A DNA stretch of 64,000 nt from Candidatus Nanosynbacter sp. (GTDB lineage Bacteria > Patescibacteriota > Saccharimonadia > Saccharimonadales > Saccharimonadaceae), in contig JABZJS010000001.1 of the NCBI GenBank assembly GCA_015257665.1, positions 155,526-219,525 of the forward strand, written 5' to 3'. The notes beneath the pieces are model-generated. The model had not been told where the DNA came from, did no database searches, and saw nothing but the letters and a program-made list of their open reading frames with translations. Below are positions 14,079 through 57,607 of this stretch, piece after piece (position 1 is the stretch's first letter; every line of letters begins with the position of its first letter). The translations under genes and the position numbers were made by a program.

Positions 14079-16022
<1,944 letters not shown>

Positions 16023-16043
16023 CACTCTCTGCACATCCTTACA

Positions 16044-16092
16044 CGGCAGCAGCCAACCGAGATATTCTCTCCGTGTTGGCTGCTGTTTTCTT
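16044..16092 (+). terminator. Rho-independent terminator after atpD
   Basis: Hairpin cagcagccaa...ttggctgctg followed by ttttctttg. Confidence 0.55.
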
Positions 16093-16500
16093 TGCCTATC
16101 CTCCTCGCTATTTTCCCCTCCCTCCCCTCCCAACATATAGTACAAATCGATTTGTACTATAGTTACCCTGTTTTTTCTCTGTTGCAGCAGACTCTTTTTC
16201 TCTTCTTTTATATATTTATATATAATAGGAGAGAAATCGATATGGAGATATGGATGTATGGAGATATAGGTAAAGATAGAGGATAGAGATAAATAGAGAA
16301 ATAGAAAGAATAAGTAAATGGAGATAAAAGTAGAGATAAATAGAGAAATAGATATAAAGGTAAGTAAATGGATAAATAGAGATAGAGATGAGTATAGAAA
16401 TAGATAGATAAATAGTAGAGAAAGAAAGTTATAGGGATAAAGAGATGGATATAAAGATATCGATACATAGAGAATAGATATAGTATCGAGATATATTAGT
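16090..16500. repeat. Strand-skewed low-complexity region: pyrimidine-rich (CT) half then purine-rich (GA/TA) half with degenerate ~48-bp tandem units
   Basis: cctcctcgctattttcccctccctcccctccc...ctctttttctcttcttttatatatttatatataat followed by gagataaatagagaaatag...taagtaaatgga repeated 2-3 times; no spacer/repeat regularity. Confidence 0.7.
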
Positions 16501-16666
16501 ATGTATAGAAATATGCTTATTGCAGCGTATTATACTGCGTACAGTATGAGAAAGGAGTAAAGCGCTCAGCTTCAAATAGACGCACTTTGACTTACCCGAT
16601 CAAATATGGCACACTTGAGGGTGGTGGGGCGACCAGCGCTCCCAGACTGCATGGAAAGGAGATACC

Positions 16667-16993
16667 ATGCACAATAGGAACAACGCATGGGACAGCCGTT
16701 CCATGCGACACGAGGCCAGAAGGGCGCGCAACATTGCGCCGTTCTGGCTGGTTGCTGTGGCCTCCTGGGCGGGTGTACCGCTTGGCAGTTACCTGTTGCT
16801 GTTCCACTTTGGTGGGACGGCATTTGAGCATCACGAGCTGCCCTGGCTCGTGATGTATCTCTTATGGCTCCTCTTTGGAGGGGCTATTGTGGCAGGCCAG
16901 CGCCTGCCGAAGGCACCAGGGTTGCTGCTTATTGCTGTAGCCGCCGTCGGAGGGGTCTTCGTATCTCTCCTCGCCTGGGGGCTTTCTATCTAG
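16667..16993 (+). CDS. Small membrane protein (3 TM helices) in the atpD-atpC insert
   Basis: 108 aa; RBS GGAAAGGAGATACC before the ATG; high-GC codon usage; followed by a strong terminator. Confidence 0.5.
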   Translation: MHNRNNAWDSRSMRHEARRARNIAPFWLVAVASWAGVPLGSYLLLFHFGGTAFEHHELPWLVMYLLWLLFGGAIVAGQRLPKAPGLLLIAVAAVGGVFVSLLAWGLSI

Positions 16994-17020
16994 CTCCTTG
17001 GGTCGTCCCTTACCCACCAA

Positions 17021-17070
17021 GGGCGGGTTGAGCAGCGCCATGTGGCTTGCTGCTCCCCGCCCTTTTCTCT
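17021..17070 (+). terminator. Rho-independent terminator
   Basis: gggcgggttgagcagc...gctgctccccgccc followed by ttttctcttg. Confidence 0.55.
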
Positions 17071-17137
17071 TGCTTGAAGTAAAAATCACTTTGCCTTCTA
17101 CCTCGCTTTTTCTCTGCCACTCTGCTATAGTAAGGCT

Positions 17138-17569
17138 ATGGATTTAGAACTTGTGACACTGACTGGTAGCAAGCTGCACGAGACTGTGTATGAGGTGATG
17201 CTGCCGACGCCGGATGGGCAGATTGCGGTCTTCCCGGGGCACGAACCACTGGTAACCCTGGCAGTGCCAGGTGTTGTGGCGGTGCGTCGCGCTAAGGACG
17301 ACAGTGACGACCAGCTGGAATACTTTGCCATCTCTGGTGGGGTGGTCGAAATTAGCCAGACAAAGGTACGTATCTTGGTCGACGAAGCCGAGCACGGCGA
17401 CGATATCATTGAGGCTGAGAGTAAAGCCGCCCTTGAGCGCGCCCTCAAGCAGCGCGACAACGCTAGCACCCAGGTAGAGCTCGAAAAAGCGCACCAGCTG
17501 GTCGACCGTCATGCCGTGCGTCTGAAGGTGGCTGGCCTGCGCCGACGCCACAACAAGCACCGCGTATAA
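17138..17569 (+). CDS. atpC: F0F1 ATP synthase subunit epsilon
   Basis: 143 aa; N-terminal beta-sandwich sequence LVTLTGSKLHETVYEVMLPTPDGQIAVFPGHEPLVT typical of epsilon. Confidence 0.85.
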   Translation: MDLELVTLTGSKLHETVYEVMLPTPDGQIAVFPGHEPLVTLAVPGVVAVRRAKDDSDDQLEYFAISGGVVEISQTKVRILVDEAEHGDDIIEAESKAALERALKQRDNASTQVELEKAHQLVDRHAVRLKVAGLRRRHNKHRV

Positions 17570-17612
17570 AATATTAGGATAACAGAGATAACCGCAGAGA
17601 GACAGCAGTATA

Positions 17613-18566
17613 ATGACGGAATTTTATCCTCCCCATCCATCATTACCAGAGGGGACATATGGTTATCGAGATAATAAGAAGACTACAAGTAATTGCTATG
17701 AGCAGCCTGTCGTATCCTACCAGCTAGGCGATGAGTATGGCCTTGGCAATCTTGATACACCACAGTGCCCCCATGCGGTAGAATTTATCCAGGAACTTGG
17801 TGAACACTACGTGCCAGCAGCGCAGAATATCATTGGCGCGTGTATGGATGGCCGGCCCGGCAGCACAGCAGAAGCAGTGCCAAATGGTGCAGGTGGTGGT
17901 TTACTCTACCTAGTGACAGATCGACTGGTACGTGGTAATAGTGATGGTATTGATGAAACGAATGCGCGTGTCCTGGGGCGAATTGGCCAGATACCCGCGA
18001 CAGTGCACGTCCATCGGGATGACCATGCTCATGGCGAAGACGCTGGCTGTGCAGCGGCCGACAAGGTGGGTGCGATCTTTACTATCATTGCTCAGCATGG
18101 TGAGCAATTGCGCAGCCTCGCCACCGAGCTTGGTCTTGGTAGTGACAGTAGCGACGAAGCACACCAGCAGATTATTCACCATGCAGCAGATGAGTCGAAG
18201 CTTGTTATGGCTAGTGGCAACAAACTCGTGACAATGGTCGACGCGCAGTTAGCAAAGAATACTGATAACACTAATGAGCCTACTGGTGCTCATACCGATA
18301 TATTGTATGGCAACCACCATGAGGTAGCAGTGGTGATGAATCGACGCACAGGGACAACACTCGACCGCCAGTCCTTAGCACAGGAGTTCGACCAGCGGTA
18401 CCAGGCCTTCAATATCGATACATGGGCCTTTGCACCCTCAGCCGAAGCACTCTACCCGGGCGATCCAACTGCCCAGCAGCACGCTACCACTGCTATGCTC
18501 TACTACAACCTCGCTGCTATTATGGCGCTGTGTGGCCCACGCATGACGGTGACCGTGCTTACATAA
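17613..18566 (+). CDS. Hypothetical protein with Cys/His-rich putative metal-binding motifs
   Basis: 317 aa; motifs ACMDGRPG and VHVHRDDHAHGEDAGCAAAD; no confident family assignment. Confidence 0.5.
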   Translation: MTEFYPPHPSLPEGTYGYRDNKKTTSNCYEQPVVSYQLGDEYGLGNLDTPQCPHAVEFIQELGEHYVPAAQNIIGACMDGRPGSTAEAVPNGAGGGLLYLVTDRLVRGNSDGIDETNARVLGRIGQIPATVHVHRDDHAHGEDAGCAAADKVGAIFTIIAQHGEQLRSLATELGLGSDSSDEAHQQIIHHAADESKLVMASGNKLVTMVDAQLAKNTDNTNEPTGAHTDILYGNHHEVAVVMNRRTGTTLDRQSLAQEFDQRYQAFNIDTWAFAPSAEALYPGDPTAQQHATTAMLYYNLAAIMALCGPRMTVTVLT

Positions 18567-18618
18567 TTCTTACTTCGCAGAATAAGGATACCTCACGCAT
18601 CACTACCCTGCCCATACC

Positions 18619-18652
18619 GATGGAGAACCATCGCTTTAGATGGTTCTCCATC
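18619..18652. terminator. Bidirectional terminator hairpin between convergent genes
   Basis: Perfect 14-bp inverted repeat gatggagaaccatc / gatggttctccatc with a 6-nt loop. Confidence 0.6.
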
Positions 18653-18696
18653 TCATAACAACACAATATGAGGATCAAGCATAGCAAGAACGCCAG

Positions 18697-19683
18697 CTAC
18701 TCAGACGCAGACATTGCTTCGTGCCACTGACGGATAATCCGCCGCGCTTCATCCGTGCTGGTGGTATGCATCAGCTGGTCGCGCAGCTCCTTCGCGCCGT
18801 CAAAGTCGCGAATGTAGATCTTGTAGAAGCGTTTGAGCGTCTCGTATGGCCGGCCCAGTGTTGGTTGCCAGTGGTCGAAGACATCGAGGTGGTAGTGAAG
18901 GAGTGCGAAGTTGCGCTGCGCCATAGAGCTACTGCCCTGCGCTACACTATCGGCACGCGGCGCAAAGCAAAATGGATCGGCAAACACCCCACGGCCAATC
19001 ATCAGGCCATTAACGCCCGGGTGGGCGGCTACCAGTGCCATGCCATGCGCCCGATCACGAATATCGCCATTGATAGTGAGCAGCGTCTGCGGCGCAATCG
19101 CATCGCGCAGCGCCACGATATCATCAATCAGCTCATAGTGCGCCGCTACCTTGCTCATCTCCTTCTTGGTACGCAGGTGAATAGTCAAGTTGACGATATC
19201 TTGCTGGAGCAGTGTCGTGAGCCACGCTCGCCACTCATCCACAACACTGTAGCCAAGGCGGGTCTTAACGCTGACTGGCAAGCCAGCCGTCTTGGCCGCG
19301 GCAATAGCGGCTACTGCAACGTCTGGATTGCGAATTAGCGCCGCTCCCCCACTCTTGATAGCACTCTTTGCAGGGCAGCCCATATTAATATCGATCCCTG
19401 CAAAGCCCAGGCGCGCGCAGTGCTGGGCAAATTGCTCCATATCGCCTGGCTCGCCGCCCCAAATCTGCGCTACCAGGGGGTACTCGTCGTCCGTCTTAAT
19501 GAGCCGGCCAGCAATTGCTCTGTCACCAGCGTGTACCCAGCCCGTCGCATTAGCAAACTCAGTAAAAAACACATCGGGCGCACCAGCCCGCTCCACCACG
19601 TGGCGAAATACCACATCCGTCACCGCCTCCATCGGTGCCAAAACAAAAAACGGCTGCGGCAAATCATTCCAAAACGACGTCAT
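18697..19683 (-). CDS. dus: tRNA-dihydrouridine synthase
   Basis: 328 aa; LAPMEAVTDVVFR...IDINMGCPAKSAIKSGGAALIRNP (catalytic Cys context) and the TIM-barrel Dus pattern. Confidence 0.9.
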   Translation of the reverse strand: MTSFWNDLPQPFFVLAPMEAVTDVVFRHVVERAGAPDVFFTEFANATGWVHAGDRAIAGRLIKTDDEYPLVAQIWGGEPGDMEQFAQHCARLGFAGIDINMGCPAKSAIKSGGAALIRNPDVAVAAIAAAKTAGLPVSVKTRLGYSVVDEWRAWLTTLLQQDIVNLTIHLRTKKEMSKVAAHYELIDDIVALRDAIAPQTLLTINGDIRDRAHGMALVAAHPGVNGLMIGRGVFADPFCFAPRADSVAQGSSSMAQRNFALLHYHLDVFDHWQPTLGRPYETLKRFYKIYIRDFDGAKELRDQLMHTTSTDEARRIIRQWHEAMSASE

Positions 19684-19858
19684 ATCAAGCTATTATAACA
19701 CAATTGATCAGGGGAGAGGCCCCGCACCCACGCTTTATGCGTAGATGGGTACCACGGTGGGTGCGGGGCGATGTGAGCAAAATACGGCCTTATAGACCAC
19801 CCCCTTTCTGGGGTCGACTCCTCCAAGGCATTTCCTTGGAGGGTATACTTACTCACGG

Positions 19859-19957
19859 CTGGGATGGCAGGAGTCGAACCTGCGACGAGAGCCCTCACAT
19901 GCCTGTCGCCATTGACAAGCAAACCTCTCGTACCCCTATACCAAACGGGGCATCCCA
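19859..19957 (-). ncRNA. tRNA-like structured RNA (canonical T-arm plus 7-bp acceptor stem, but non-canonical D and anticodon regions)
   Basis: RNA 5'-TGGGATG...ACGAGAG...[hairpin CTTGTCAATGGCGACAGG]...CTCTCGT-GCAGGTTCGACTCCTGC-CATCCCA-G; T-loop GGTTCGACTCC; no 8-9 spacer; 43-nt elaboration where the anticodon arm should be. Confidence 0.35.
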
Positions 19958-20487
19958 GGTTGGTCACCATTGACCAACCATTCCTTACAAAAACTCAAGC
20001 CGGAGCAGATCCGGCGAGTTCCTTGTAAGGATAGAGATAATTGTAATCTACTTGGGCGAGGCTGTCAAGTGGTAGCTCACTAAAGCTGGCTGGCGTATCG
20101 CAGTCTTGCGTTGGTGTGCTCCATTCCCCTTGTGATGGTATACTCAATCAGCTTTGCACACGTGCAAGTATATATTCTCAAGAAAAGGAAGAAGCTCCTA
20201 CCTCAACGCATGATGCGGATGCAGGAGCTCGGGAGAGACTACAAGCGGTTCTGCTCGTCCTGGCCGGTAGCCAGGGCGCGAGTGAATCTCGCGAGTCTCA
20301 CGTGTTTTAAAGAAGCCTCCGTGGCAGGTGCACGGTGCGCGGCAGTGAGACGCACAGCATGAGATTTCTCGATCGTTGCCTCCAAGTGGCAACGATACCG
20401 CCTACCCCCCTTGATGTCCGATAAAGGGTAACCTGCGGCGGTTGCTATGGCAATGCTCTACGCGAAAAACGGAGCATTCGCCAGTAG

Positions 20488-20563
20488 CGGAGATAGCAGG
20501 AATCGAACCTGCACCTCTATGTGAGCTAACACATAAAGGCAAAAGGGGGACCACCCCATCTCC
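20488..20563 (-). ncRNA. tRNA-like structured RNA (second copy of the same architecture)
   Basis: RNA 5'-GGAGATG-GGGGTGGTCCCC-...CTTTATGTG-TTAGCTC-CACATAGAG-GT-GCAGGTTCGATTCCTGC-TATCTCC-G; T-arm nearly identical to the upstream element; 9-bp anticodon-like stem; no canonical D-stem. Confidence 0.35.
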
Positions 20564-20652
20564 AGTGACGGATAGGTGCACGACCTTATTCTGTCGTGGC
20601 TTTTTACCTACTCTCTCAGCCTCGCACGTGAGGCTGACCGTCATCCTGTGTG

Positions 20653-20820
20653 CTACCGACCGTTTGGTCGGCCGCAGGCACAGACATAACCTGTACCATT
20701 ACACGTGGCACAGGCGGATTTGAAGGAAAAAGAAGGCCCTTTTTCCTTTTTACTGCCCCTGCAGGAGGGGCAGATCTTTGTGCCGGTATAACCGTTACCG
20801 GCACAGACCTTACAGGACAT
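20653..20820 (-). CDS. Small DnaJ-type zinc-finger protein (4x CxxCxGxG repeats)
   Basis: 55 aa MSCKVCAGNGYTGTKICPSCRGSKKEKGPSFSFKSACATCNGTGYVCACGRPNGR; RBS GGAGG 10 nt upstream; preceded by a consensus promoter. Confidence 0.55.
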   Translation of the reverse strand: MSCKVCAGNGYTGTKICPSCRGSKKEKGPSFSFKSACATCNGTGYVCACGRPNGR

Positions 20821-20957
20821 GAGGTATTCACCTCCTCTCTGCCGAAGTTTCGGCAAAGACATCGGTGAACCCTTTTTTCAAGGACGCTCTCGTGCTGAGC
20901 GTCTCGAGATAGCTACATCGGGTAGCTACCAGGGTTCACTCAGTTTCGAGCTGTTAC

Positions 20958-20988
20958 TATATATACCAATATACGGCGAGCCTGTCAA
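20958..20988 (-). promoter_or_regulatory. Near-consensus sigma70 promoter (-35 TTGACA, 17-bp spacer, -10 TATATA), copy 1 of a repeated cassette
   Basis: Minus-strand TTGACAggctcgccgtatattggTATATA; the same architecture and spacer core occur at 30054-30082 and 46546-46574. Confidence 0.5.
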
Positions 20989-21343
20989 TCAATATGCGCA
21001 TGTCTTGCAGAGATTCTTGTTTTGTTCTTACGTTCTGCTTCATTCTATGTATTATTCGCAACAAATGACAGACGACGTAGATTTATTGCAATCAAACAGT
21101 TTCATGCTTCCGCTGCAGGAATCAGGTAAAGATAAGCAGATTATCCCCCTAGAAAAACTCACCCACCAGCGCGAGAGCTAAGGATGTCTCGTATACTGCA
21201 CTGAAGATATCCCGGCTAAAGTAGCAGAAAAATCTGCCCATATATTTCGCTCATTAGCCACTCCATTGTCTCCTGTAGTGCGTTGCAGCAAGGGCGTATA
21301 GCGAATACATTGCCTATTGTGTCGCAAGTGCTCGTGCGAGCGG

Positions 21344-24300
21344 CTATTCTCGCTCTTCTATACGCCGCAGCAGATCTTCCTCAAAGGCGAGAATGCCTTT
21401 GTAGGTGGCTGGGTAGTGGCTGGTGTCGGGTAGCTGGAGGTGAGTAATGCAGTGCCACACGGCGGCGATGAGCTGAGCAAATTCATCCAGCTCGGCCTGA
21501 GAAAAGCTGGTGCTGAGCTGGTGGATAGCGCCCGTGTCCTTGTCTGGCTCGACGAACTGCAGCGTGGCCCCGGCAAAGTCGTAGCGCACATAGTCGCGCG
21601 AGTGGCGCACGAGGAGCTCGTAGAACATCAGCTGCTGGCGGTATTTGTGCAGCTTAATCTTCTCGGCATCGGTGCGACCCTGCCAGCTGCGAGCAGGCTT
21701 ACCCGTCTTGTAGTCTGTAACGGCGATGGTATTGGCAGTGTGGTCAATATCGACAAGGTCAAGCGTGCCAGTAAGGCGAGCATCACCAAGCACGACTCCT
21801 TGGCCGGCAAAGCTTAGCTCGGTCTTTTGCTCGGGACGGAAGGTATGCGCCTCGGCCTGCAAGAAGGCGCTCAGTGAATCAAGCCCTTTGCGGCTAAAGT
21901 ACGCGAAGTCCTCTGGCCCCAGTGGCTGGCGATTAAGCTCTTGCTCAAAGTCGCCGAGGATATCTTCGGCCGGTCGCACCTTGCCAGTGGCAGCAAGATG
22001 GGTGTGAGCACGCTGCAATACGTGGTGGATGGCATTGCCATAGATGGCATGTGGGCTCGGTGCCTGCGGAAAGCGCAGCAAGTAGTTGGTTAAGAAGGTC
22101 GTGGGCCCACCCCGCGACACATCTAAGAAGGCAGTAAGATGGGTACTAGAGAGCTTATACTGCTCGAGCATAGGCTGGAGGAGCTGCTGCAAATCGGGCT
22201 CGGGCGTGCCAACTGGCGCAAGGCGGCGCTGCCAATCGGTGGTGAGCTGGGTGGTGAGGCTTGGCACATCATTGGGCATGTCGACAGTGGTTGCAGTGAG
22301 GTCGACACCGTCGAGGAAGCTGGCCGGTAGTGTTGCTTTGCCAGTATCATCTTGGGTGCTGTAGCTGATAGTCAGGTGATTGCGCGCCCGCGTCATGGCG
22401 ACGAAAAAGAGACGGAGGCGCTCGTCGTACGTGTTACCAGCTGGAGCAATAGCAAGATTATCTGGATACGTGATAAGCGACACTGGCGAGCGCACACGCC
22501 GTCCCCAGGTGCTATCAACAGCGCCCATGATGTAGACATGACCAAACTCTAGCCCCTTGGCCTTGTGCGCCGTCATGAGGTTAATACGGCCGGTATGCGC
22601 CTCGGTGCGCTGGCGGATGGTGGTGATCGGCGTCTTGAACTGCCGGTGCATACCGAGGAGATCGAGCATATCGGCAAGCCGGAGCGTCTCATCATCACCG
22701 CGATACTCCTGGGCGCGGCTGCGCAGAGTCCGCAAGGCCTCAAGACAGGCGAGATATGCATCGGGCTGCTCGGCAAGCCTCTCGCGCGAGAAATAATAAT
22801 CGTACAGTGGTGAGCGGTAACGTACGGTGGGCATAGCAGCGGCCGCCTCGGTAGAGAGGCTAATTGGCTGGTCGAGTTGGGCTATCTGCTGCGTCATGTA
22901 CTCGGTAATCGCACTGGCTATGGCGGCCTGAGTCTTTTGGCTATCGGCTGGCTGCGGGACACCAAGCAAATCATCAAGTACCATCTCAAGCGGTTGATAC
23001 TGCGCCTGCCACGCCATATGGATCAGCCACATCGTTAAGGGTTGGAAGGTGGGGCTCGCCATCATCGCCTCGCCCCACGTTTGGCGGTTGCGCCACGCCC
23101 GGAGGCTGAGCTGCCAAATATCCTGGCTGGCAAAACCAAAGGCCGGGTGCGCCACCAGCTTTGAGAGCAAGCTATCAGCCATAGGAAACTCCCCTGCTGC
23201 TATGGCTTCGACCACCCGCGCGAGCAACTCGAGCACCTGGATGACAGGATTATCAAGAATATTGTCGCGCCGCTCGTAATTGATGGCAATCCCTGCCGTC
23301 TGCAGGTGTGGCACCAGCGCCACCAGCTCGCGGTGACGCCGAGCCAGGACGGCAATCTCCTCGGGCGGCGTGCCACTGTCGATCTGCTGGCGAATCTGCT
23401 GTGCCAGCCATTGGCGCTCGGCTAGGCTGGTGGGCAGCTCGGCGAGGTTGACGGCAGTCTGGGTTGGCTGGTGATGGGCGGTGAGCGTCTTATCGAGCTC
23501 GGGAAGCACCGCCTCTAACCGGTCACCCCCCTGAGTGATAACAGCCCGGGCTGGTGTGAGAATGGCGCGACTCGAGCGGTAGTTATCCGTCAAGGCAATC
23601 AGCCGCACATCGCGGTAATGGCTCCGGAAGCGGTGAATGTTACTGACATCTGCTCCCTGGAAGCTGTAGATTGCTTGGTCATCATCACCGACTGCCATAA
23701 TGTTGGGGCGACCCTCGTGGACCGGACTACTCGTCAGCGAAAAGAGGATGCGCAGCTGCGCGAGGTTGGTATCTTGGAATTCATCCACCATGATGTATTG
23801 GTACTGCTCCTCAAGGTTAGCGCGCAGCTCAGGCTGGGCATCGAGCGCCTGAGCGAGCTGGAGAATCATATCATCGTAGTCATACAGACCAGCCGCACTC
23901 AGCTCGGTAAGATATGCATCATAAACCTCAGCAAGGGCGCGCAGCTTACCGAGGCGCTTGCGATCTTTTAAGACATAATTCCCAGTAGCGTCCTTCTCGC
24001 ACCAGTGGTTGCGCCAGGCGGTCAGTGGCGTGGTCTTGCCACTATCGAGCGTCTCATCGATTGCTCGAGCCAGGCTGAGCGAGAAGCTATCAGCCAGTGG
24101 TGGAATGGTGGGCGGCAACGGCGGCAGTGGCAGCTGAGCTGCCTCGCCCGCCAGCGGGGCGAGCTTGCCGGCCATTGGTTTGCTTATTCGCCCGGCGGCA
24201 AAGACCTCGCTGAGGCGTGGTTCGACAGCTGCCACGAGCGCCTCATCTGCATCGATAACCTGCCGAAGCTCTGCGCTACTCAGGCCAGCCTGCTTGAGCT

Positions 24301-24775
24301 GGCTAATACTGCGGCTAATGTCCTGCAGATAGGTAAACTCACCATTTTGCTTACTACTTAGAGGGCTCTGATGATCGAGCTGGCCAAGGATGCTGCGCAA
24401 AATCTCGTAGCTGCCAAGCTCATCGGTAGGTTTACGTGATGCACCGTGATAAAAATACTCCCGGTGGTGGTTTATCACCTCACTGCCAAAGCTGTGGAAG
24501 GTATGGATAGCGACGCGGTAAGCATCTGCCCCAATGATACTGCGCAGACGCTGCCGCATCGCAGCCGCCCCACTGTCGGTAAAGGTAAGACAGAGAATAT
24601 TCTCGGGCAGTACATCTGTTTGGCGCAGGATGTTGGCGGCGCGCATGCTGAGTAGCTCTGTCTTGCCGGTACCGGGGCCAGCCACAACGAGCAGTGGCCC
24701 ATCAATCGTATCGACAGCGGCGCGCTGCTGGTTATTGAGGTGCGTGTATCGAGTCGAAAATTCGTGTTCAGACAT
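21344..24775 (-). CDS. UvrD/Rep-family helicase fused to a C-terminal PD-(D/E)XK (RecB/Cas4-like) nuclease
   Basis: About 1143 aa; Walker A AGPGTGKTE; UvrD helicase motifs throughout; C-terminal IDHT...VTDYKTGK...YRQQLMFYELL nuclease motifs. Start taken at MSEHEF (24775). Confidence 0.9.
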   Translation of the reverse strand: MSEHEFSTRYTHLNNQQRAAVDTIDGPLLVVAGPGTGKTELLSMRAANILRQTDVLPENILCLTFTDSGAAAMRQRLRSIIGADAYRVAIHTFHSFGSEVINHHREYFYHGASRKPTDELGSYEILRSILGQLDHQSPLSSKQNGEFTYLQDISRSISQLKQAGLSSAELRQVIDADEALVAAVEPRLSEVFAAGRISKPMAGKLAPLAGEAAQLPLPPLPPTIPPLADSFSLSLARAIDETLDSGKTTPLTAWRNHWCEKDATGNYVLKDRKRLGKLRALAEVYDAYLTELSAAGLYDYDDMILQLAQALDAQPELRANLEEQYQYIMVDEFQDTNLAQLRILFSLTSSPVHEGRPNIMAVGDDDQAIYSFQGADVSNIHRFRSHYRDVRLIALTDNYRSSRAILTPARAVITQGGDRLEAVLPELDKTLTAHHQPTQTAVNLAELPTSLAERQWLAQQIRQQIDSGTPPEEIAVLARRHRELVALVPHLQTAGIAINYERRDNILDNPVIQVLELLARVVEAIAAGEFPMADSLLSKLVAHPAFGFASQDIWQLSLRAWRNRQTWGEAMMASPTFQPLTMWLIHMAWQAQYQPLEMVLDDLLGVPQPADSQKTQAAIASAITEYMTQQIAQLDQPISLSTEAAAAMPTVRYRSPLYDYYFSRERLAEQPDAYLACLEALRTLRSRAQEYRGDDETLRLADMLDLLGMHRQFKTPITTIRQRTEAHTGRINLMTAHKAKGLEFGHVYIMGAVDSTWGRRVRSPVSLITYPDNLAIAPAGNTYDERLRLFFVAMTRARNHLTISYSTQDDTGKATLPASFLDGVDLTATTVDMPNDVPSLTTQLTTDWQRRLAPVGTPEPDLQQLLQPMLEQYKLSSTHLTAFLDVSRGGPTTFLTNYLLRFPQAPSPHAIYGNAIHHVLQRAHTHLAATGKVRPAEDILGDFEQELNRQPLGPEDFAYFSRKGLDSLSAFLQAEAHTFRPEQKTELSFAGQGVVLGDARLTGTLDLVDIDHTANTIAVTDYKTGKPARSWQGRTDAEKIKLHKYRQQLMFYELLVRHSRDYVRYDFAGATLQFVEPDKDTGAIHQLSTSFSQAELDEFAQLIAAVWHCITHLQLPDTSHYPATYKGILAFEEDLLRRIEERE

Positions 24776-24844
24776 GTCTCCATTATCGCACACTCACCGC
24801 CTCGACTCTAGCGGCCAGGCCGAGATTCCGGTATAATATCCATC

Positions 24845-25336
24845 ATGGACTTTGGTAACCACATGGATGTCGCATATGTGCAAAAGGCTCTCGCCGCGCG
24901 CTTTGGCGTGCAGCTAGTGATCGACCGCGTGGTGGCGCGCAATATTGCCGCAGGGCTTGCCGCCAAGGCGTCGGTGTTTTTTGCGACAGACGGCCAGCTC
25001 TATTGCTTGGTTTATGGGCCATCGCGCCTTCTGCTTGGCGATATCAAGAAGATCGCTGTGCGAATTGGCCTGCGCGCTGAGACATTCTTCCCGCCACGGG
25101 GTCAGCCAGAGTATTTTGACGAATTTGGCCGGCAAAAATTTCGCGAAATATTTCCCGGATTTGGGCGCATCACCGATCGCGACATTATGTACTATCGCAC
25201 TCTTGCACCGTACAACCCAGCTCTCATTCTCGTTGATGAGGTGAAGGACGGCCACATCTACCAAGCAGACAGCGACGCGCGCAGTGGCTGGCGGGTTGCC
25301 GCGAAGTGTCAGTATCATCGAGGAGGAATGAACTAA
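24845..25336 (+). CDS. Hypothetical protein
   Basis: 163-aa ORF, no recognisable motif. Confidence 0.45.
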   Translation: MDFGNHMDVAYVQKALAARFGVQLVIDRVVARNIAAGLAAKASVFFATDGQLYCLVYGPSRLLLGDIKKIAVRIGLRAETFFPPRGQPEYFDEFGRQKFREIFPGFGRITDRDIMYYRTLAPYNPALILVDEVKDGHIYQADSDARSGWRVAAKCQYHRGGMN

Positions 25337-25339
25337 CCT

Positions 25340-27661
25340 ATGAAGGATTATCTGGTCATCATCCGGCGCAACTTTGCCTCGCCCATCGTGCTGGCGATTT
25401 TGCTCCTTGCTATGGCGCTGGTCTATGTGCGGGAGTATCGCGATGCCTGGTTTATATCATTCGTCATTATGGTCAATTCGCTGATTGGTGCCGTGCAGGA
25501 GGTTCGGGCTAAGCGCGCTCTGCGCAAGCTCGAGCTCATGAGCGCCCCACGCGCCCGCGTTGTCCAGGCCGATGGTACCGTAATCGAGGTGCTTTACGAT
25601 GCACTGCAGGTTGGCGATACTCTCGCACTACACACTGGCGATGAGCTACCCGCCGACGGTGTCGTGCTTGACGCAAAAGGCCTCGAAGTGAACGAGAGCA
25701 TGCTCACGGGTGAATCTGCCGCGGTTGACAAAGCACCCGGTGATACCATCTATGCAGCCACAACAGTAGTAGCGGGTACAGCCCACGCTCGCGTCACGGC
25801 AGTTGGTAGCGCCACCAAGGCTGGTGCAATCAGTACCGTACTTAAGCAGTATGCACCGCAGCCCACGCCGCTCCAGCGGGCTATCCAGCGGGCTATTACC
25901 GTCTTAACCTATGGCGCAGTCGTGCTAGCGCTGCTTATCTTCGCGCGCTACCATATTGCGGGGCTGCAGGCGGTCAGTATCCTCAAGACGATTATTACCG
26001 CAGCGATCACAGTTGTGCCAGAAGGGCTGCTCCTGGCGAGCTCGCTCCTGCTTGCCTTTGGCTCGCTGCGCCTGGCTCAGGCTAAGGTTTTACCTCAAAA
26101 GCTCTCGGCGATTGAGGCAATGGCGCTACTTGGTGTGCTCTGCGTGGATAAGACGGGTACCTTGACAAGTGATGATGTTATCTTCGAGCAGGCTGCGTCG
26201 TTCGACACATCGGCTAATGACGAGGTGGTCGCTCAGTACGCTGCCCTGGTTGCGCACGAAACCAGTGGTGGCAACGCGACTGGCCAGGCAATTCTTGCTT
26301 CGCACCAGGCACCCGCCGCCCACGTTCAAGAGGTGATGGCGTTCTCATCGAGCCGGAAAATGGCAGGGGTGCGGGCCGAGATTGATGGCTCAGTGCAGAC
26401 GCTGATGCTAGGCGCACCAGAGTTTGTGGCGCGGCTCGCCCCGCTCTCACCAGCCCAGCAAGCGCAAATCGACGCCTGGGCAAATGATGGCCTGCGTGTC
26501 CTCCTGCTCGCCCGCTTTGCCGACAGTAGCGTGCCACTCAAGCAGCTCACCGCTGGCTCGGGCCAGCCGCTGGGGGCGATTGTCCTGCGCAACAGTCTGC
26601 GCCATGGCGTGGTCGATACCGTACGATTTTTGCAGGGCCAAGGAGTGACAATTCGCGTTATTAGTGGAGATAACCCGCGGACGGTCAGCTATATCGCCAA
26701 GGCAGCGGGGATCCATCGGCCTGAGGCAGCTATCACCGGGGCGGAGCTTGCCCAGCTCGATGATGCAGCCTTTGCCCAGGCGGCCGATACGCACACAATC
26801 TTTGCTCGCGTCTTACCCGAGCAAAAGGAGCGGCTCATTGCACACTTCTCAGAGCAAGGGCGGTTTACTGGCATGGTGGGCGATGGCGTCAATGATGCCT
26901 TGGCGCTCAAGCGAGCCGACCTTGGCGTCGCGATGTATGCTGGTGCACCAGCCAGCCGGCGTGTTGCCGATATCATCTTGCTCAACAACTCCTTCACCTC
27001 GCTACCCCTGGGGATGGAGCTAGGTAATCGCATCATGCAGGCCATTGAGCTCATTGGCGTGCTCTTCTTCCATAAGATTATCTATGGTGTCGTACTGCTC
27101 GCCATTACCCTCACCCTCGGCATTATGTACCCATATGCGCCGCGCCATCTTACCTTCATGAATATTTTCCTCGTGACAATGCCGACCATTATGTGGACGC
27201 TCTTCCCGCCCTCACCGCGACACCGGATTGACCCCCGGCGCTTCTGGCACGATACCCTGCTGGCAGTGGCACCAATTGCAGTGCTCACGGGAGTAACGGT
27301 CGCTAGTGTGTATTGGCTTGGTCGCACACTCTATCCAGATCGCCTTGGCGAAGTAGCAACAATGACAGTGCTGGTAGCGACCTTCTACGGCGTATATCTG
27401 GTATTTTTGGCTGGCCGCATGCTTGGCATCCAGCTCGATAAGCGGGCTCACCTTGCCCGCACACTCTACATGCTCGCAGTATTACTCGTGACAGTGGTGA
27501 GCTTTGGCATCATTCCACTTCGCCAATTCTTTGACTTCACCCCGCCAAATCTGCTCCTCCTCTGGCCCAGCATTGCCATTATTATTCCAGTAACCATCCT
27601 GCAATGGTGGTGGGCGTGGCGTGTGAGCCAGCGCTTTGTGGCGGCGTCTTGTGCTGAGTAG
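25340..27661 (+). CDS. P-type cation-transporting ATPase
   Basis: 773 aa; phosphorylation motif CVDKTGTLT, hinge GDGVNDALAL, multiple TM segments. Confidence 0.9.
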   Translation: MKDYLVIIRRNFASPIVLAILLLAMALVYVREYRDAWFISFVIMVNSLIGAVQEVRAKRALRKLELMSAPRARVVQADGTVIEVLYDALQVGDTLALHTGDELPADGVVLDAKGLEVNESMLTGESAAVDKAPGDTIYAATTVVAGTAHARVTAVGSATKAGAISTVLKQYAPQPTPLQRAIQRAITVLTYGAVVLALLIFARYHIAGLQAVSILKTIITAAITVVPEGLLLASSLLLAFGSLRLAQAKVLPQKLSAIEAMALLGVLCVDKTGTLTSDDVIFEQAASFDTSANDEVVAQYAALVAHETSGGNATGQAILASHQAPAAHVQEVMAFSSSRKMAGVRAEIDGSVQTLMLGAPEFVARLAPLSPAQQAQIDAWANDGLRVLLLARFADSSVPLKQLTAGSGQPLGAIVLRNSLRHGVVDTVRFLQGQGVTIRVISGDNPRTVSYIAKAAGIHRPEAAITGAELAQLDDAAFAQAADTHTIFARVLPEQKERLIAHFSEQGRFTGMVGDGVNDALALKRADLGVAMYAGAPASRRVADIILLNNSFTSLPLGMELGNRIMQAIELIGVLFFHKIIYGVVLLAITLTLGIMYPYAPRHLTFMNIFLVTMPTIMWTLFPPSPRHRIDPRRFWHDTLLAVAPIAVLTGVTVASVYWLGRTLYPDRLGEVATMTVLVATFYGVYLVFLAGRMLGIQLDKRAHLARTLYMLAVLLVTVVSFGIIPLRQFFDFTPPNLLLLWPSIAIIIPVTILQWWWAWRVSQRFVAASCAE

Positions 27662-55490: not shown

Positions 55491-55645
55491 AGTACCCTTT
55501 CTGTGGTGCAAGCGGCTTGGGTGCCTCCCACGATTACTCATTAACCTTTCTAGTATAGCATATATGGGCCCTGCAGCATGAGATAATAAGCTTGTACAAT
55601 GCGAAAAAACAGAGTAGTTATTTTGAGCACGCATCACCAATTGTG

Positions 55646-57607
55646 CTATAATAAGAGACGTTGTCGGGGTGTAGCGCAGCTGGTAGCGCGTACGGCTGGG
55701 GGCCGTGAGGTCGCAAGTTCAAGTCTTGTCACCCCGACCATTGAGTCAACACTCAAACCCACGTCATGGAAGCCCCATGACGTGGGTTTTTGCTTGTTTT
55801 TGCTGGGTTTTGGGGCAGGAAGGCCATCATCTGGCAGACCGTACAAGCCTGGCCCTTCTGACACCGAGACGACGATGTCACTTGGCTGGCTCAATGTGAC
55901 TTCGTCGTCTCCAGAGGCTTCCAGGCTGTCGCCATCTCCTACCTCCACACCCTCTTTGCTCAGGCACGGCTCTCCTCCTCTCACCCCCAGCACCCCATCA
56001 AACGGTGGCTGGTAGCGCACCATCGCAGTGAGCAGCCCAGTCTCGTCGTCTGGTGTGATGTACACCTTGTCGAAGAGCACCTGGTTGAGCATGCGCCGGA
56101 TGTGCTCAGGAGCCTGCCGGTAGGCGGTGGCCATGTGCTGGGCAATATCTAACGCTTGCCCGACCAAGGCCTGCCGCTCTGTCATCTCACCCTCCAGCCC
56201 CGTCATCTGCCGCTCCACACCGCACAGCTCACGGCTTATCCGGCTTTGCTCACGCTTGAGGACGTCAAGCGGAATGGCGTCGGCGTAGTGAGCTTGGAGG
56301 AGCTTGTCTCGCTCCCGTTCGAGCCGTCGCCGCACGGTCTTCGCTTCCGTCAGCCGCTGAGTCGACTCTGCTACCAGCATGGCCACCTGCCGCTGCAGGG
56401 CGGTTTCGAGGACAGCTCGCTGCCCAGGCCGCAACGCCACTCGGTCGTAGAGCCGGACGATCTCATCCTCAATCTGCTCCGCCAACGTTGCCCGAAACAA
56501 GCACTGCGGCTGCTTCTTGGAGTGCCGCCCCAAGCAGACGAAGTACTCATACACCACACCGCGGGGCTTCACATTCGTCACGATGAGACGGGAACCACAG
56601 ATCCCGCAGTAGATCGTCGACTTCAGGTAGTGCGCGTGCTTGACCGTCCGCTCACCGTTGACGCGGGTGGCCAGCAGCGTCTGCACCGACTCGTACGTCG
56701 CCCGATCCACCAAGGGCTCATGGCTCCCGGCATAGTGCACCCCTTGGTAGACCACCTCACCGACGTAGAAGGGATTGTGGAGCACCTTGCTGAGTAGCTG
56801 CACCGTCACCGGCTTCTCCGGCAGTGAGGCGGTCGGCACGGTGGTCAGGCCGCGCAGCGTCAACTCTTCGGCCAAGCGCCTGAGCGTCCACTCCCCACTG
56901 GCGTAGGCCGCAAAGGCCCAGGCCACCAGCGGCCCACGTACCTCATCCACCACCACAATGCGCGCCTCCTGGCCATTCTTCGTCGTGATGACGTTGCGGT
57001 AACCCAGCGGTGCTCGGCCGATGCAGCCACCACCCCGCACTTTCTCAGCCATGCCTTTCTTCACCTCATTGGAGAGGTTCTTGGAGTAGAACTCAGCGAT
57101 ACTGGCCATAATGCCGTGAACCAGCAGCCCACCGGGCGTCTGATCGATATTCTCGCTGGTCGACACCAGCCGAACGCCGAGCTCATCGAAGCGTTTACCC
57201 AAGGTGGTGTCGTCGTAGCGGTTGCGCACCAGGCGGTCGAGTTTGTGGACGATGACGTAGTCGACCGGCCGCCCCGACCGAGCCTCCTCCTCCAGGTAGG
57301 TCAGCATCGCCTGGAGAGCCGGGCGCCGCGTGGTAGTGGCGCTGACACCACCTTCGGTGAACTCCTTGCCGATGATGGCGCCGATGCTCATCGCCTTGCG
57401 CTTGTTGGCCGACCGCTGGGCCGGGATGGAGAAGCCCTCCTCACGGCCGCCCCGCCGGGCCTGCTCGCGGGTAGAGACGCGCAGGTAGGACACGGCGCGC
57501 CGGGGAGTCAGCTCCTGGGCCAGCTGCTCGGCCGAGTTTTGGATGGTGGGAGAAGGGGCGGTAGCGCGCCCTGTTGCTCCATAATTAGGTGATAGCGTAT
57601 TGCTCAT
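55646..57607 (-). CDS. Large serine recombinase (integrase of the tRNA-Pro-inserted element)
   Basis: 653 aa; N-terminal resolvase domain AVSYLRVSTREQ (catalytic Ser), recombinase domain, zinc ribbon CGICGSRLIV...CLGRHSKKQPQC and coiled coil. The 3' end of the ORF runs through the tRNA-Pro sequence, consistent with integration into the tRNA 3' end; ~65 % GC. Confidence 0.9.
   Translation of the reverse strand: MSNTLSPNYGATGRATAPSPTIQNSAEQLAQELTPRRAVSYLRVSTREQARRGGREEGFSIPAQRSANKRKAMSIGAIIGKEFTEGGVSATTTRRPALQAMLTYLEEEARSGRPVDYVIVHKLDRLVRNRYDDTTLGKRFDELGVRLVSTSENIDQTPGGLLVHGIMASIAEFYSKNLSNEVKKGMAEKVRGGGCIGRAPLGYRNVITTKNGQEARIVVVDEVRGPLVAWAFAAYASGEWTLRRLAEELTLRGLTTVPTASLPEKPVTVQLLSKVLHNPFYVGEVVYQGVHYAGSHEPLVDRATYESVQTLLATRVNGERTVKHAHYLKSTIYCGICGSRLIVTNVKPRGVVYEYFVCLGRHSKKQPQCLFRATLAEQIEDEIVRLYDRVALRPGQRAVLETALQRQVAMLVAESTQRLTEAKTVRRRLERERDKLLQAHYADAIPLDVLKREQSRISRELCGVERQMTGLEGEMTERQALVGQALDIAQHMATAYRQAPEHIRRMLNQVLFDKVYITPDDETGLLTAMVRYQPPFDGVLGVRGGEPCLSKEGVEVGDGDSLEASGDDEVTLSQPSDIVVSVSEGPGLYGLPDDGLPAPKPSKNKQKPTSWGFHDVGLSVDSMVGVTRLELATSRPPAVRATSCATPRQRLLL
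55665..55740 (+). tRNA. tRNA-Pro (anticodon GGG), CCA encoded
   Basis: Acceptor CGGGGTG/CACCCCG, D-arm GCGCAGCTGGTAGCGC, anticodon loop CTGGGGG, T-loop TTCAAGT, 3' ACCA. Confidence 0.8.
55757..55795 (+). terminator. Rho-independent terminator after tRNA-Pro
   Basis: aaacccacgtcatgg / ccatgacgtgggttt hairpin followed by ttgcttgtttttg. Confidence 0.55.

Follow-up and report, generated by a model that had tools for sequence, protein, structure and literature searches.

A structured RNA that may carry exchangeable small-protein genes and a non-decoding tRNA mimic in Candidatus Saccharibacteria

The 64,000-nucleotide stretch of DNA that we analysed (contig JABZJS010000001.1; here called the window) carries on its minus strand a short open reading frame (ORF) for a 55-amino-acid (55-aa) cysteine-rich protein and, downstream of it, a tRNA-like RNA, or tRNA mimic; both lie between a helicase-nuclease gene and a gene of the Dus family. 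We propose that this locus represents a single allele of a transcription unit common to the Saccharibacteria in the helicase-nuclease/Dus interval, in which a structured RNA would act as a platform for an exchangeable small-protein cassette and from which the mimic would be excised; we put the probability of this reading at about 0.45. At the level of sequence, our comparison demonstrates the anatomy of the locus, its conservation and covariation, selection on its coding sequences, the polymorphism of its cassette and the non-decoding nature of its mimic. A sequence-only reading of the window had implied a specific partnership between a zinc finger and the tRNA mimic. That partnership was not borne out: the slots of sister species hold unrelated zinc-ribbon or Cys-free helical proteins, and loci with a replaced ORF keep the same leader and downstream tRNA mimic. 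On this comparison the zinc finger is not the essential feature of the locus; the cassette is exchangeable.

In the arrangement that we propose, a strong sigma-70-type promoter (P1) would give rise to one extensively folded RNA, some 0.77 kb in length, or about 0.6 kb in Nanosynbacter. The conserved frame of this RNA would comprise a 5' three-way-junction leader with the ribosome-binding site, a 3' three-way junction, the mimic, a module built on an irregular helix, and a terminator. This frame would hold a slot for a single cassette, made up of the small-protein ORF and a hairpin at its stop codon, and recombination in the conserved flanks would swap the alleles of the slot. The parts of the unit in the window, and a second unit that follows it, are listed here, with lengths in nucleotides (nt) or base pairs (bp) and folding z-scores (z).

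20960-20988, minus strand: promoter P1, with the -35 hexamer TTGACA at 20988-20983 and the -10 hexamer TATATA at 20965-20960.
20821-20952, minus strand: structured 5' leader, with a three-way junction, a 10-bp hairpin and a ribosome-binding-site hairpin.
20653-20820, minus strand: ORF for the 55-aa Cys-rich small basic protein (family A), with its ATG at 20820 and its TAG at 20655-20653.
20645-20684, minus strand: hairpin across the stop codon, predicted by folding, part of the cassette.
20567-20642, minus strand: three-way junction GACGG...CCGUC enclosing two hairpins (z = -4.2).
20488-20563, minus strand: tRNA-like element 1, with a canonical acceptor stem, the T-arm GGUUCGAUUCC and a D-type hairpin whose loop contains GG.
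20448-20483, minus strand: long conserved hairpin, 4 nt past the mimic, with compensatory variants (87-93% conserved).
20235-20299, minus strand: 3' module, with a closing stem, the irregular helix GCGAGAUUCACUCG / CGAGCAGAACCGC and a variable hairpin cap (86-98% conserved).
20180-20230, minus strand: probable intrinsic terminator of unit 1, GAGCUCCU...AGGAGCUU and then a U-rich tract.
19719-20068, minus strand: unit 2, with its own promoter, two leader hairpins, tRNA-like element 2 and a terminal hairpin.

The evidence for exchange comes from 81 loci. In all of the genomes that matched the Dus protein of the window (26 and 54, described below) the gene order is the same: helicase-nuclease gene, largely non-coding stretch, Dus gene. 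In blastn comparisons the intergenic region aligns at 80-98% identity on either flank, and the segment 20817-20643 cannot be aligned in most close relatives. Unrelated ORFs replace the 55-aa ORF there, set between the same ribosome-binding site on the 5' side and the same junction (GACGGTCAGCCUC...) on the 3' side. One of about ten unrelated families of small ORF occupies the slot in 75 of the 81 loci; at least three of the six loci without an assigned family are truncated contigs. The families were delimited with tblastn and by eye, and distant kinship is possible between A and C and among the subtypes of E, F and G.

Family A (the window type): 14 loci.
Family B, a four-Cys zinc ribbon: 11 loci.
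Family C, with two CxxCxGxG motifs and a weak match to the Anti-TRAP profile: 7 loci.
Family D: 6 loci.
Family E: 8 loci.
Family F, Cys-free and helical-looking: 10 loci.
Family G, Cys-free and helical-looking: 10 loci.
Family H: 6 loci.
Family I: 1 locus.
Family J: 2 loci.

The slot families are under purifying selection, with a ratio of non-synonymous to synonymous substitution rates (dN/dS; Nei-Gojobori, computed with our own script on sequences that are short and often saturated) of 0.14-0.29 in each family with enough members. The proteins of all families are 44-60 aa long, have an isoelectric point (pI) of 8.6-10.9 and are hydrophilic, with a grand average of hydropathy (GRAVY) between -0.2 and -1.2; a sequence-property scan of the families found no membrane, hydrophobic or signal segment. 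Their maximum 15-aa Kyte-Doolittle mean is at most 0.81, and a type I toxin was rejected because of this hydrophilicity. From the shared size and charge our guess is that the slot proteins bind nucleic acid or the ribosome. The families are common to the window clade and the Nanosynbacter clades and are scattered on the Dus tree, sister species differing in the family that they carry; this allele pattern suggests frequency-dependent selection. No second or silent copy of a cassette was found elsewhere in the 64-kb window or in the 13-kb loci, and the family G protein, when retrieved from the database, always stands in the helicase/Dus context. ORF family and mimic variant assort independently, and one metagenome contig combines an identical ORF with a different mimic variant; the region is therefore a recombination mosaic. 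Two known types of variable locus were considered and rejected. The target of a diversity-generating retroelement does not fit, because whole ORFs are swapped for non-homologous sequence, because the window and the loci hold no second copy and because a Pfam scan of nine flanking ORFs found no reverse transcriptase; an integron cassette does not fit either, since the same scan found no recombinase, of the IntI type or otherwise.

Such a polymorphism could also mean that the slot proteins are themselves the point of the locus. They would then form a set of small basic effectors that stand in for one another and whose polymorphism is maintained by frequency-dependent selection: factors against phages or against defence systems, say, determinants of the episymbiont's compatibility or host range, or addictive toxins, with the RNA as sensor, antidote or high-expression chassis. 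It speaks for effectors that sister species differ in family when every family is ancient and both major clades conserve it, that the replaced segment runs precisely from start codon to three-way junction, that there is a single copy per genome region, and that size and charge are common to all families, many of which also have a basic C-terminal cluster (KK, RR). However, no partner gene, signal peptide or membrane segment accompanies them; families F and G (searched with G and F2 queries) had no relatives in viral contigs and family A (A2 query) only partial matches at the level of the CxxCxGxG motif, a defence-system library not having been searched; and polymorphism alone cannot name a selective agent. 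We consider effectors an unlikely explanation of the locus.

The RNA around the slot is the constant partner in these exchanges, and it begins with P1. The promoter that had been read from the window, with a -35 hexamer, 17 bp and a -10 hexamer, was confirmed at 20988-20960 on the minus strand: its spacer is 17 nt long and ends in TG, making an extended -10 (TGgTATATA), and in 25 related sequences the hexamers are invariant and the spacer variable. In the close clade conservation is 91-95% across the block 21040-20941 as against 51-68% in the DNA farther upstream. A consensus promoter scanner did not list P1 because it demands T at the last -10 position. The 5' leader folds with a minimum free energy (MFE) of -59.7 kcal/mol (z = -6.5) and is 81-96% conserved in the close clade. 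Its GGAGG ribosome-binding site (20835-20831, minus strand) forms a hairpin, GGAGG-UGAAUA-CCUC, that directly abuts the ATG, and the site covaries across clades with its pairing partner, which lies 4-5 nt before the start codon (GGAGG/CCUC, GGGG/CCCC, GAGG/UCUC); the comparison suggests a weak hairpin that occludes the ribosome-binding site at 20821-20835 and at the orthologous sites. An 18-nt block 5' of the start codon, AGAGGAGGTGAATACCTC, is identical in 15 loci with ORFs of families A, B, C and D. A further block, CAGAACCGCUUG, is superficially like the CR-V sequence of RNase P; RNase P RNA was rejected, having no Rfam support at expectation values (E) <= 1-5.

The 55-aa ORF of the window is, by the comparative evidence, a real conserved gene. 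Both its GGAGG ribosome-binding site and the Cys-rich frame itself were found where the sequence-only reading had put them. The longest mechanical ORF has 69 aa, from an ATG at 20862; this upstream ATG is missing in relatives, and therefore the genuine start is that of the 55-aa frame, which follows the conserved ribosome-binding site. tblastn found the ORF at the matching position in 14 genome loci and 24 metagenome contigs, and its median dN/dS of 0.137 (12 distinct sequences, many pairs being saturated at synonymous sites) favours conservation of the ORF. The window protein has a pI of 9.4 and eight Cys, all invariant across ten family A members. The description of these Cys as four CxxCxGxG repeats was slightly overstated: CKVCAGNG and CATCNGTG are canonical, CPSCRGSK is nearly so (it ends in K and reads CPSCRGTG in relatives), and the fourth motif is a CxC (CACG) in the window clade and CxxCGG in other clades. 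The protein probably binds two zinc ions via its eight Cys. The label of DnaJ-type zinc finger likewise holds in part. The best match in the PDB is the DnaJ zinc domain 1exk (E = 0.042), and the best profile match is Pfam PF00684 (DnaJ_CXXCXGXG) with E = 2.4e-4, at 21.7 bits and so under the cut-off of 32.7; the similarity seems real but weak. A word-indexed search of 5.8 billion database proteins gave no word-level match, phmmer, run exhaustively against 1.84 billion representatives, returned just seven proteins at E <= 1e-3, including a single stand-alone relative of 55 aa, and a search of the E. coli genome gave no match. A single-sequence AlphaFold model was uninformative, with a predicted local distance difference test (pLDDT) score of 44.

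Unrelated cassettes bring individual hairpins at the stop codon: windows of 60 nt centred on the stop have a median folding z of -2.4 in the cassettes as against +0.2 in Dus (Mann-Whitney p = 5.6e-13). The ORF might accordingly act mainly in cis, as a translated leader in which ribosomes melt the stop-codon hairpin and thereby steer downstream folding, processing or termination, the peptide being secondary. A hairpin at the stop codon of all the unrelated cassettes, a ribosome-binding site inside a small covarying hairpin and an ORF length held to 44-60 codons are what such a leader would be expected to show. Selection on the peptide is not, in a purely cis-acting role, and the dN/dS values of 0.14-0.29 at saturated synonymous sites, together with the eight invariant Cys, argue that the amino-acid sequences are under selection. 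We regard a leader of this kind as quite improbable.

The tRNA-like RNA at 20563-20488 was confirmed and starts 89 nt past the ORF stop. It retains the acceptor stem, the T-arm and the D-type hairpin with GG in its loop, that is, the top half and the elbow of a tRNA, and it folds with an MFE of -37.1 kcal/mol (z = -5.7). A strict top-half pattern (7-bp acceptor, 5-bp T stem, TTCRANT loop) matched three sites in the 64 kb, namely tRNA-Pro and the two tRNA-like elements, against 0.02 in shuffles; in 80 loci it gave 88 matches in the 1.9 kb upstream of Dus and none in the remaining 1.67 Mb. Our own covariance model R1, made of acceptor stem and T-arm only, found 95 elements, all but the tRNA-Pro in the slot and on the coding strand, with scores of 51.1 bits for element 1 and 44.9 bits for element 2. 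When 83 distinct sequences were aligned, 98.1% of the cells in acceptor stem and T-arm were paired, with compensatory changes in 10 of 12 pairs, in an alignment that was itself fitted to the covariance model; slid controls gave 33-64%. On this evidence the tRNA-like element is a genuine RNA structure. The mimic lies 50-164 nt past the ORF stop in 69 of 75 loci, irrespective of ORF family, and trails the family A ORF in 22 of 24 further metagenome loci, so that the pairing of mini-ORF and tRNA-like element noted in the window does recur in relatives.

What lies below the elbow is not maintained. Within the close clade the lower half of the mimic comes in three unrelated variants, one of which (V2) has no anticodon arm; in element 1 the 'anticodon' arm has 10 bp in its stem and 6 nt in its loop. 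Because the anticodon arm is unconserved, we conclude that the mimic is not a decoding tRNA. A real tRNA was rejected in view of the inconsistent 'anticodons' (ARAGORN calls differ among orthologues: Lys, Phe, Trp, Glu, Ser, Pro or undetermined), the non-canonical loop and the unencoded CCA; GCUAC follows the acceptor stem of element 1, and CCA is encoded in the tRNA-Pro of the window. Element 1 reaches 24.8 bits with the Rfam tRNA model (RF00005; gathering score 29), and ARAGORN, run on the window, called neither tRNA-like element and no transfer-messenger RNA (tmRNA); some orthologous mimics pass the Rfam threshold, for example that of locus L060 with 40.6 bits. In viral contigs the T-arm/acceptor pattern matched only an ordinary phage tRNA. 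The tRNA-Pro (GGG; 55640-55740, plus strand) is the only canonical tRNA of the window; it begins about 10 nt past an extended -10, TGTGCTATAAT, encodes its CCA, is followed by a clean intrinsic terminator, and was used as the internal reference for a real tRNA gene.

A more distant lineage bears on the origin of the mimics. In its locus (L097) the promoter is retained, and so are an ORF of family A, a tRNA-Pro-like mimic, the 3' module, the terminator and the same helicase upstream; the next gene is unlike Dus at its start, and the unit therefore appears to be independent of Dus. The post-ORF element of L097 (1749-1822), like that of L082 (349-422), is called tRNA-Pro (AGG) by ARAGORN and has the acceptor stem of the window tRNA-Pro, but it has C33 and a loop that can be closed to 3 nt. 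This tRNA-Pro-like copy suggests that the mimics descend from an ORF co-transcribed with a real tRNA. A near-intact copy in one lineage would also suit a view of the elements as decaying tRNA genes or remnants of attachment (att) sites, the variable DNA being integration debris, as would the presence of variable DNA near tRNA-like sequences and the 85% identity over 26 nt between the 3' halves of the two window elements. It does not suit this view that the pairs covary across so many distinct sequences, that the position of the element is fixed in at least 75 species, that the start codon and the three-way junction, rather than tRNA 3' ends, delimit the variable segments, that no recombinase was found among the nine flanking ORFs, or that the cassettes encode conserved proteins. 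Decay or att remnants are largely refuted already, and we hold them to be highly improbable.

The RNA on either side of the mimic is structured as well. The three-way junction stops 3 nt short of it; RNAalifold finds 24 pairs in the junction, six of them with compensatory double changes, and the same architecture is repeated in L060 and L032. The long hairpin past the mimic exists in the compensatory variants TGGCAAATGCTC/GAGCATTGCCA and TATAACAATGCTC/GAGCACTGCTATA. In the 3' module, GCGAGAUUCACUCG and CGAGCAGAACCGC are the two most conserved blocks of the region (95-98%), and the exact pair is present in 54 of the 81 loci; they pair as an irregular helix in which the bulged As are invariant and the upper part shows compensatory changes, and the long-range helix found by RNAalifold shows the compensatory forms CUCG/CGAG, UUCG/CGAA and UUUG/CAAA. 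A cloverleaf obtained by folding a single sequence of this module was rejected, the compensatory changes backing the long-range helix. The irregular helix is a candidate for a new RNA motif: the modules around the slot matched no Rfam family and the 3' motif had no match in viral contigs. Counterparts of the module lie at 5861-5935 in L032 and at about 1998-2064 in L097. Conservation falls sharply right past the probable terminator. Between this terminator and the unit 2 promoter there is a hypervariable patch (20073-20183), with 28-55% identity and up to 57% gaps among close relatives.

Unit 2 repeats the mimic on its own. Its promoter (TTGACA, 17 nt, TACAAT; 20068-20040) agrees with the consensus at 11 of 12 positions and has hexamers that are invariant in relatives; tRNA-like element 2 (19958-19859, 100 nt) has an elongated anticodon arm, scores 25.6 bits with the Rfam tRNA-Sec model (threshold 47) and folds with z = -4.0; the terminal hairpin (19769-19719) is a perfect one of 13 bp; and the unit holds no supported ORF. 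The mimics of the window have A3:U70 and G3:C70, with G73 as discriminator. A subfamily of mimics of 66-72 nt, GGGTGTG...CACATCC-A, has G3:U70 and discriminator A73; its members lie at about 5755-5824 in L027, L032, L041, L043, L051, L058, L063 and L077, and others are present in L030, L040, L048, L052 and L076. G3:U70 with A73 is the alanine identity set of tRNA-Ala and tmRNA, and such mimics could be chargeable, non-decoding alanine acceptors, substrates of alanyl-tRNA synthetase (AlaRS).

These features raise the possibility that the mimics are the main products of the locus, as stable non-decoding tRNA-shaped RNAs, and that the small ORF merely shares their transcription unit. Like the dedicated non-proteinogenic tRNAs of cell-wall synthesis, or like tmRNA, which AlaRS charges, the mimics might receive an amino acid and serve outside translation; alternatively, they might bind or titrate proteins that handle tRNA. 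A unit that consists of promoter and mimic with no ORF favours this, as do the occurrence of two mimics in many loci, the distal G3:U70/A73 mimics (for example L032, 5755-5824) and the Dus gene that adjoins the locus in nearly all genomes; moreover, the retention of the D-loop GG and of the T-loop indicates that the tRNA elbow is kept under selection. On the other hand, acceptor stem and discriminator vary among orthologues, so that there is no common aminoacylation identity, CCA is not encoded, the lower half is freely swapped or deleted, and at least one lineage has the unit but has lost its adjacency to Dus. We think it rather unlikely that the mimics are the main products.

The reading that we prefer, a structured platform RNA from which the mimic is excised, starts from what the mimic has kept. 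In a tRNA, the acceptor stem, T-arm and elbow serve as recognition sites for RNase P, RNase Z and the CCA-adding enzyme. We propose excision because the retained parts of the mimic are the targets of these enzymes and because a closed, covarying junction directly precedes it. RNase P and RNase Z would excise the mimic from the primary transcript; this would leave a small-protein mRNA whose 3' end is capped by the adjacent three-way junction, and would separate that mRNA from the downstream RNA module. The arrangement would be a bacterial counterpart of MALAT1/mascRNA. From P1 to the terminator we infer a single transcript, because a site scan found no promoter-like or terminator-like site between the ORF stop and the mimic (20652-20564). 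The co-transcription of ORF and mimic that had been thought probable gains from the same scan and is likewise a matter of what the sequence implies.

Several points weigh against this platform reading. Transcript boundaries, translation and cleavage by RNase P and RNase Z are all inferred, as are zinc binding and the single transcript, and most of the source genomes are metagenome-assembled genomes (MAGs); the MAG layout is, however, repeated in isolates and in one complete genome (L037, L046, L050, L069, L074). Our doubt about excision arises mainly because the mimic of unit 2, which has a promoter of its own, and the second mimics of many loci come with no ORF, which points to a function of the mimic RNA itself. 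Element 1 has no U8 and lies below the Rfam and ARAGORN thresholds, so that its efficient recognition by RNase P is not guaranteed, and upstream of the 3' module there is a weak terminator-like site at 20335-20319. The hairpins at the stop codon and at the ribosome-binding site hint at translation-coupled switching of the RNA, which processing does not explain, and neither does it explain the alternation of about ten protein families. A wider proposition, about which we are somewhat doubtful, is that the locus is a Saccharibacteria-specific RNA-protein module of a kind not recognised before, with a chassis RNA of about 0.6-0.8 kb, an anticodon-less mimic that keeps its elbow, the invariant irregular helix and about ten non-homologous alleles kept as a long-lived balanced polymorphism across genera, RNA and protein acting jointly. 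Joint action, for example as a tRNA-mimicking ribonucleoprotein in conflict or compatibility during episymbiosis, would make the locus more than a small gene beside a tRNA relic.

If our reading is true, these would be the first conserved structured RNAs and tRNA mimics to be described for the phylum, together with about ten families of small protein that have so far been unannotated or 'hypothetical', and they would provide an unusually clean case of non-homologous genes replacing each other in one RNA scaffold. Frequency-dependent selection on the slot could bear on the dealings of these obligate episymbionts with hosts, phages and one another. Cultured Saccharibacteria are naturally transformable, and the hypotheses are therefore directly testable.

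The genes that flank the interval place the organism in Candidatus Saccharibacteria.

21344-24793 (read 24793-21344), minus strand: UvrD/PD-(D/E)XK helicase-nuclease gene, flanking the unit on the promoter side.
18697-19683, minus strand: Dus-family (dihydrouridine-synthase) gene (Pfam Dus, E = 1.7e-46).

The Dus protein of the window is 91-96% identical to those of 26 Candidatus Saccharibacteria species genomes and 70-81% identical to those of 54 further genomes, which include Nanosynbacter isolates and one complete genome. [quoted passage not shown] Genomes of Saccharibacteria and of other CPR bacteria are about 94% coding; even so, between about 0.6 and 1.7 kb of each genome that we examined is given over to this mostly non-coding, doubly promoted locus. 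The nine flanking ORFs compared with Pfam encode ATP synthase subunits, a CDCA-like protein, Dus, the helicase-nuclease, a P-type ATPase and unknowns. The CDCA-like protein is a 317-aa ORF (17613-18566, plus strand) in which Pfam CDCA, the cadmium carbonic anhydrase repeat, is matched with E = 6.6e-8; this domain is best known from diatoms and unexpected in a Saccharibacterium. The Dus gene has an extended -10, TGTTATAAT (19700-19692, minus strand), just 8 nt 5' of its ATG and no ribosome-binding site, and its mRNA is probably leaderless or nearly so; the close-set layout of -10 and ATG is also seen in L060 and L032.

Among known systems, the closest relation of the window protein in form may be sought in Anti-TRAP (RtpA, PF15777) of Bacillus subtilis, which is also a stand-alone protein of about 53 aa with DnaJ-type CxxCxGxG zinc motifs and no J domain, and whose expression is also linked to tRNA biology. 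The family C allele matches the Anti-TRAP profile with E = 2.7e-4 (21.3 bits, under the cut-off of 32), and the window protein has no match to it at E <= 0.01. Anti-TRAP has four Cys, whereas the window protein has eight, in two putative sites per chain; in the former case tRNA is sensed in trans, while here a tRNA-shaped RNA is encoded downstream in cis. We know of no TRAP context in Saccharibacteria, and Rfam found no T-box or other riboswitch family in positions 15000-27000 of the window at E <= 1. The Cys-rich domain of DnaJ/Hsp40 (PF00684; 1exk) shares the spacing of the Cys pairs and the Gly-rich turns, but the window protein has a CxC as its fourth motif, no flanking DnaJ domains and a score below the cut-off.

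On the RNA side, tmRNA (SsrA) resembles the unit in combining a tRNA-like top half that has no anticodon arm with a short ORF in one RNA, and some related mimics have G3:U70 and A73. In our unit, however, the tRNA-like part forms one uninterrupted piece downstream of the ORF, the window mimics do not have G3:U70, and the slot ORF, equipped with a ribosome-binding site and an ATG of its own, codes for a conserved protein; tmRNA was rejected on these grounds and for want of an ARAGORN call. The bacterial Y-RNA-like YrlA (RF02553) is a non-coding RNA with a tRNA-like module of T-arm and D-arm, and it is reported to be a substrate of tRNA-modifying enzymes including Dus; unlike the mimic, it is permuted, with its ends in the Ro-binding stem. 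It too was rejected, with no match in the window at E <= 1 and a score of 21.9 bits against 69 in L060 that is driven by the T-arm only. The T-box, signal recognition particle (SRP) RNA and 6S RNA were also considered, and found no Rfam support at E <= 1-5. mascRNA and MEN-beta, at the 3' ends of MALAT1 and NEAT1, and tRNA punctuation offer the nearest parallel to the proposed processing: each has a tRNA shape with a degenerate anticodon loop inside a longer transcript, an upstream structure that could cap the new 3' end, and cleavage by RNase P and RNase Z, which is only proposed in our case. mascRNA and MEN-beta are eukaryotic, whereas our unit is bacterial, its upstream RNA is a small-protein mRNA and a second copy of the mimic has its own promoter.

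Long, conserved, structured RNAs that encode a small protein are known in the dual-function RNAs RNAIII/hld of S. aureus and SgrS/SgrT of E. coli. In those the ORF is fixed, whereas here no part is less conserved than the ORF, and non-homologous genes take its place. A search of the literature on tRNA-like RNAs or variable small proteins in Saccharibacteria or Patescibacteria returned nothing relevant, and to our knowledge there is no described case of non-homologous small genes being swapped precisely inside a conserved structured RNA with a tRNA mimic after them. In its genetics the slot is most like the allelic cassette loci (integron cassettes, anti-CRISPR and defence hot spots, comC pherotypes), which also combine conserved flanks, a common promoter and interchangeable content with a distribution that departs from phylogeny. 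It differs from them in that no integrase, attC or viral relatives were found, and in that what is exchanged is one ORF, about 150-200 nt long, together with its stop-codon hairpin, set inside an RNA scaffold.

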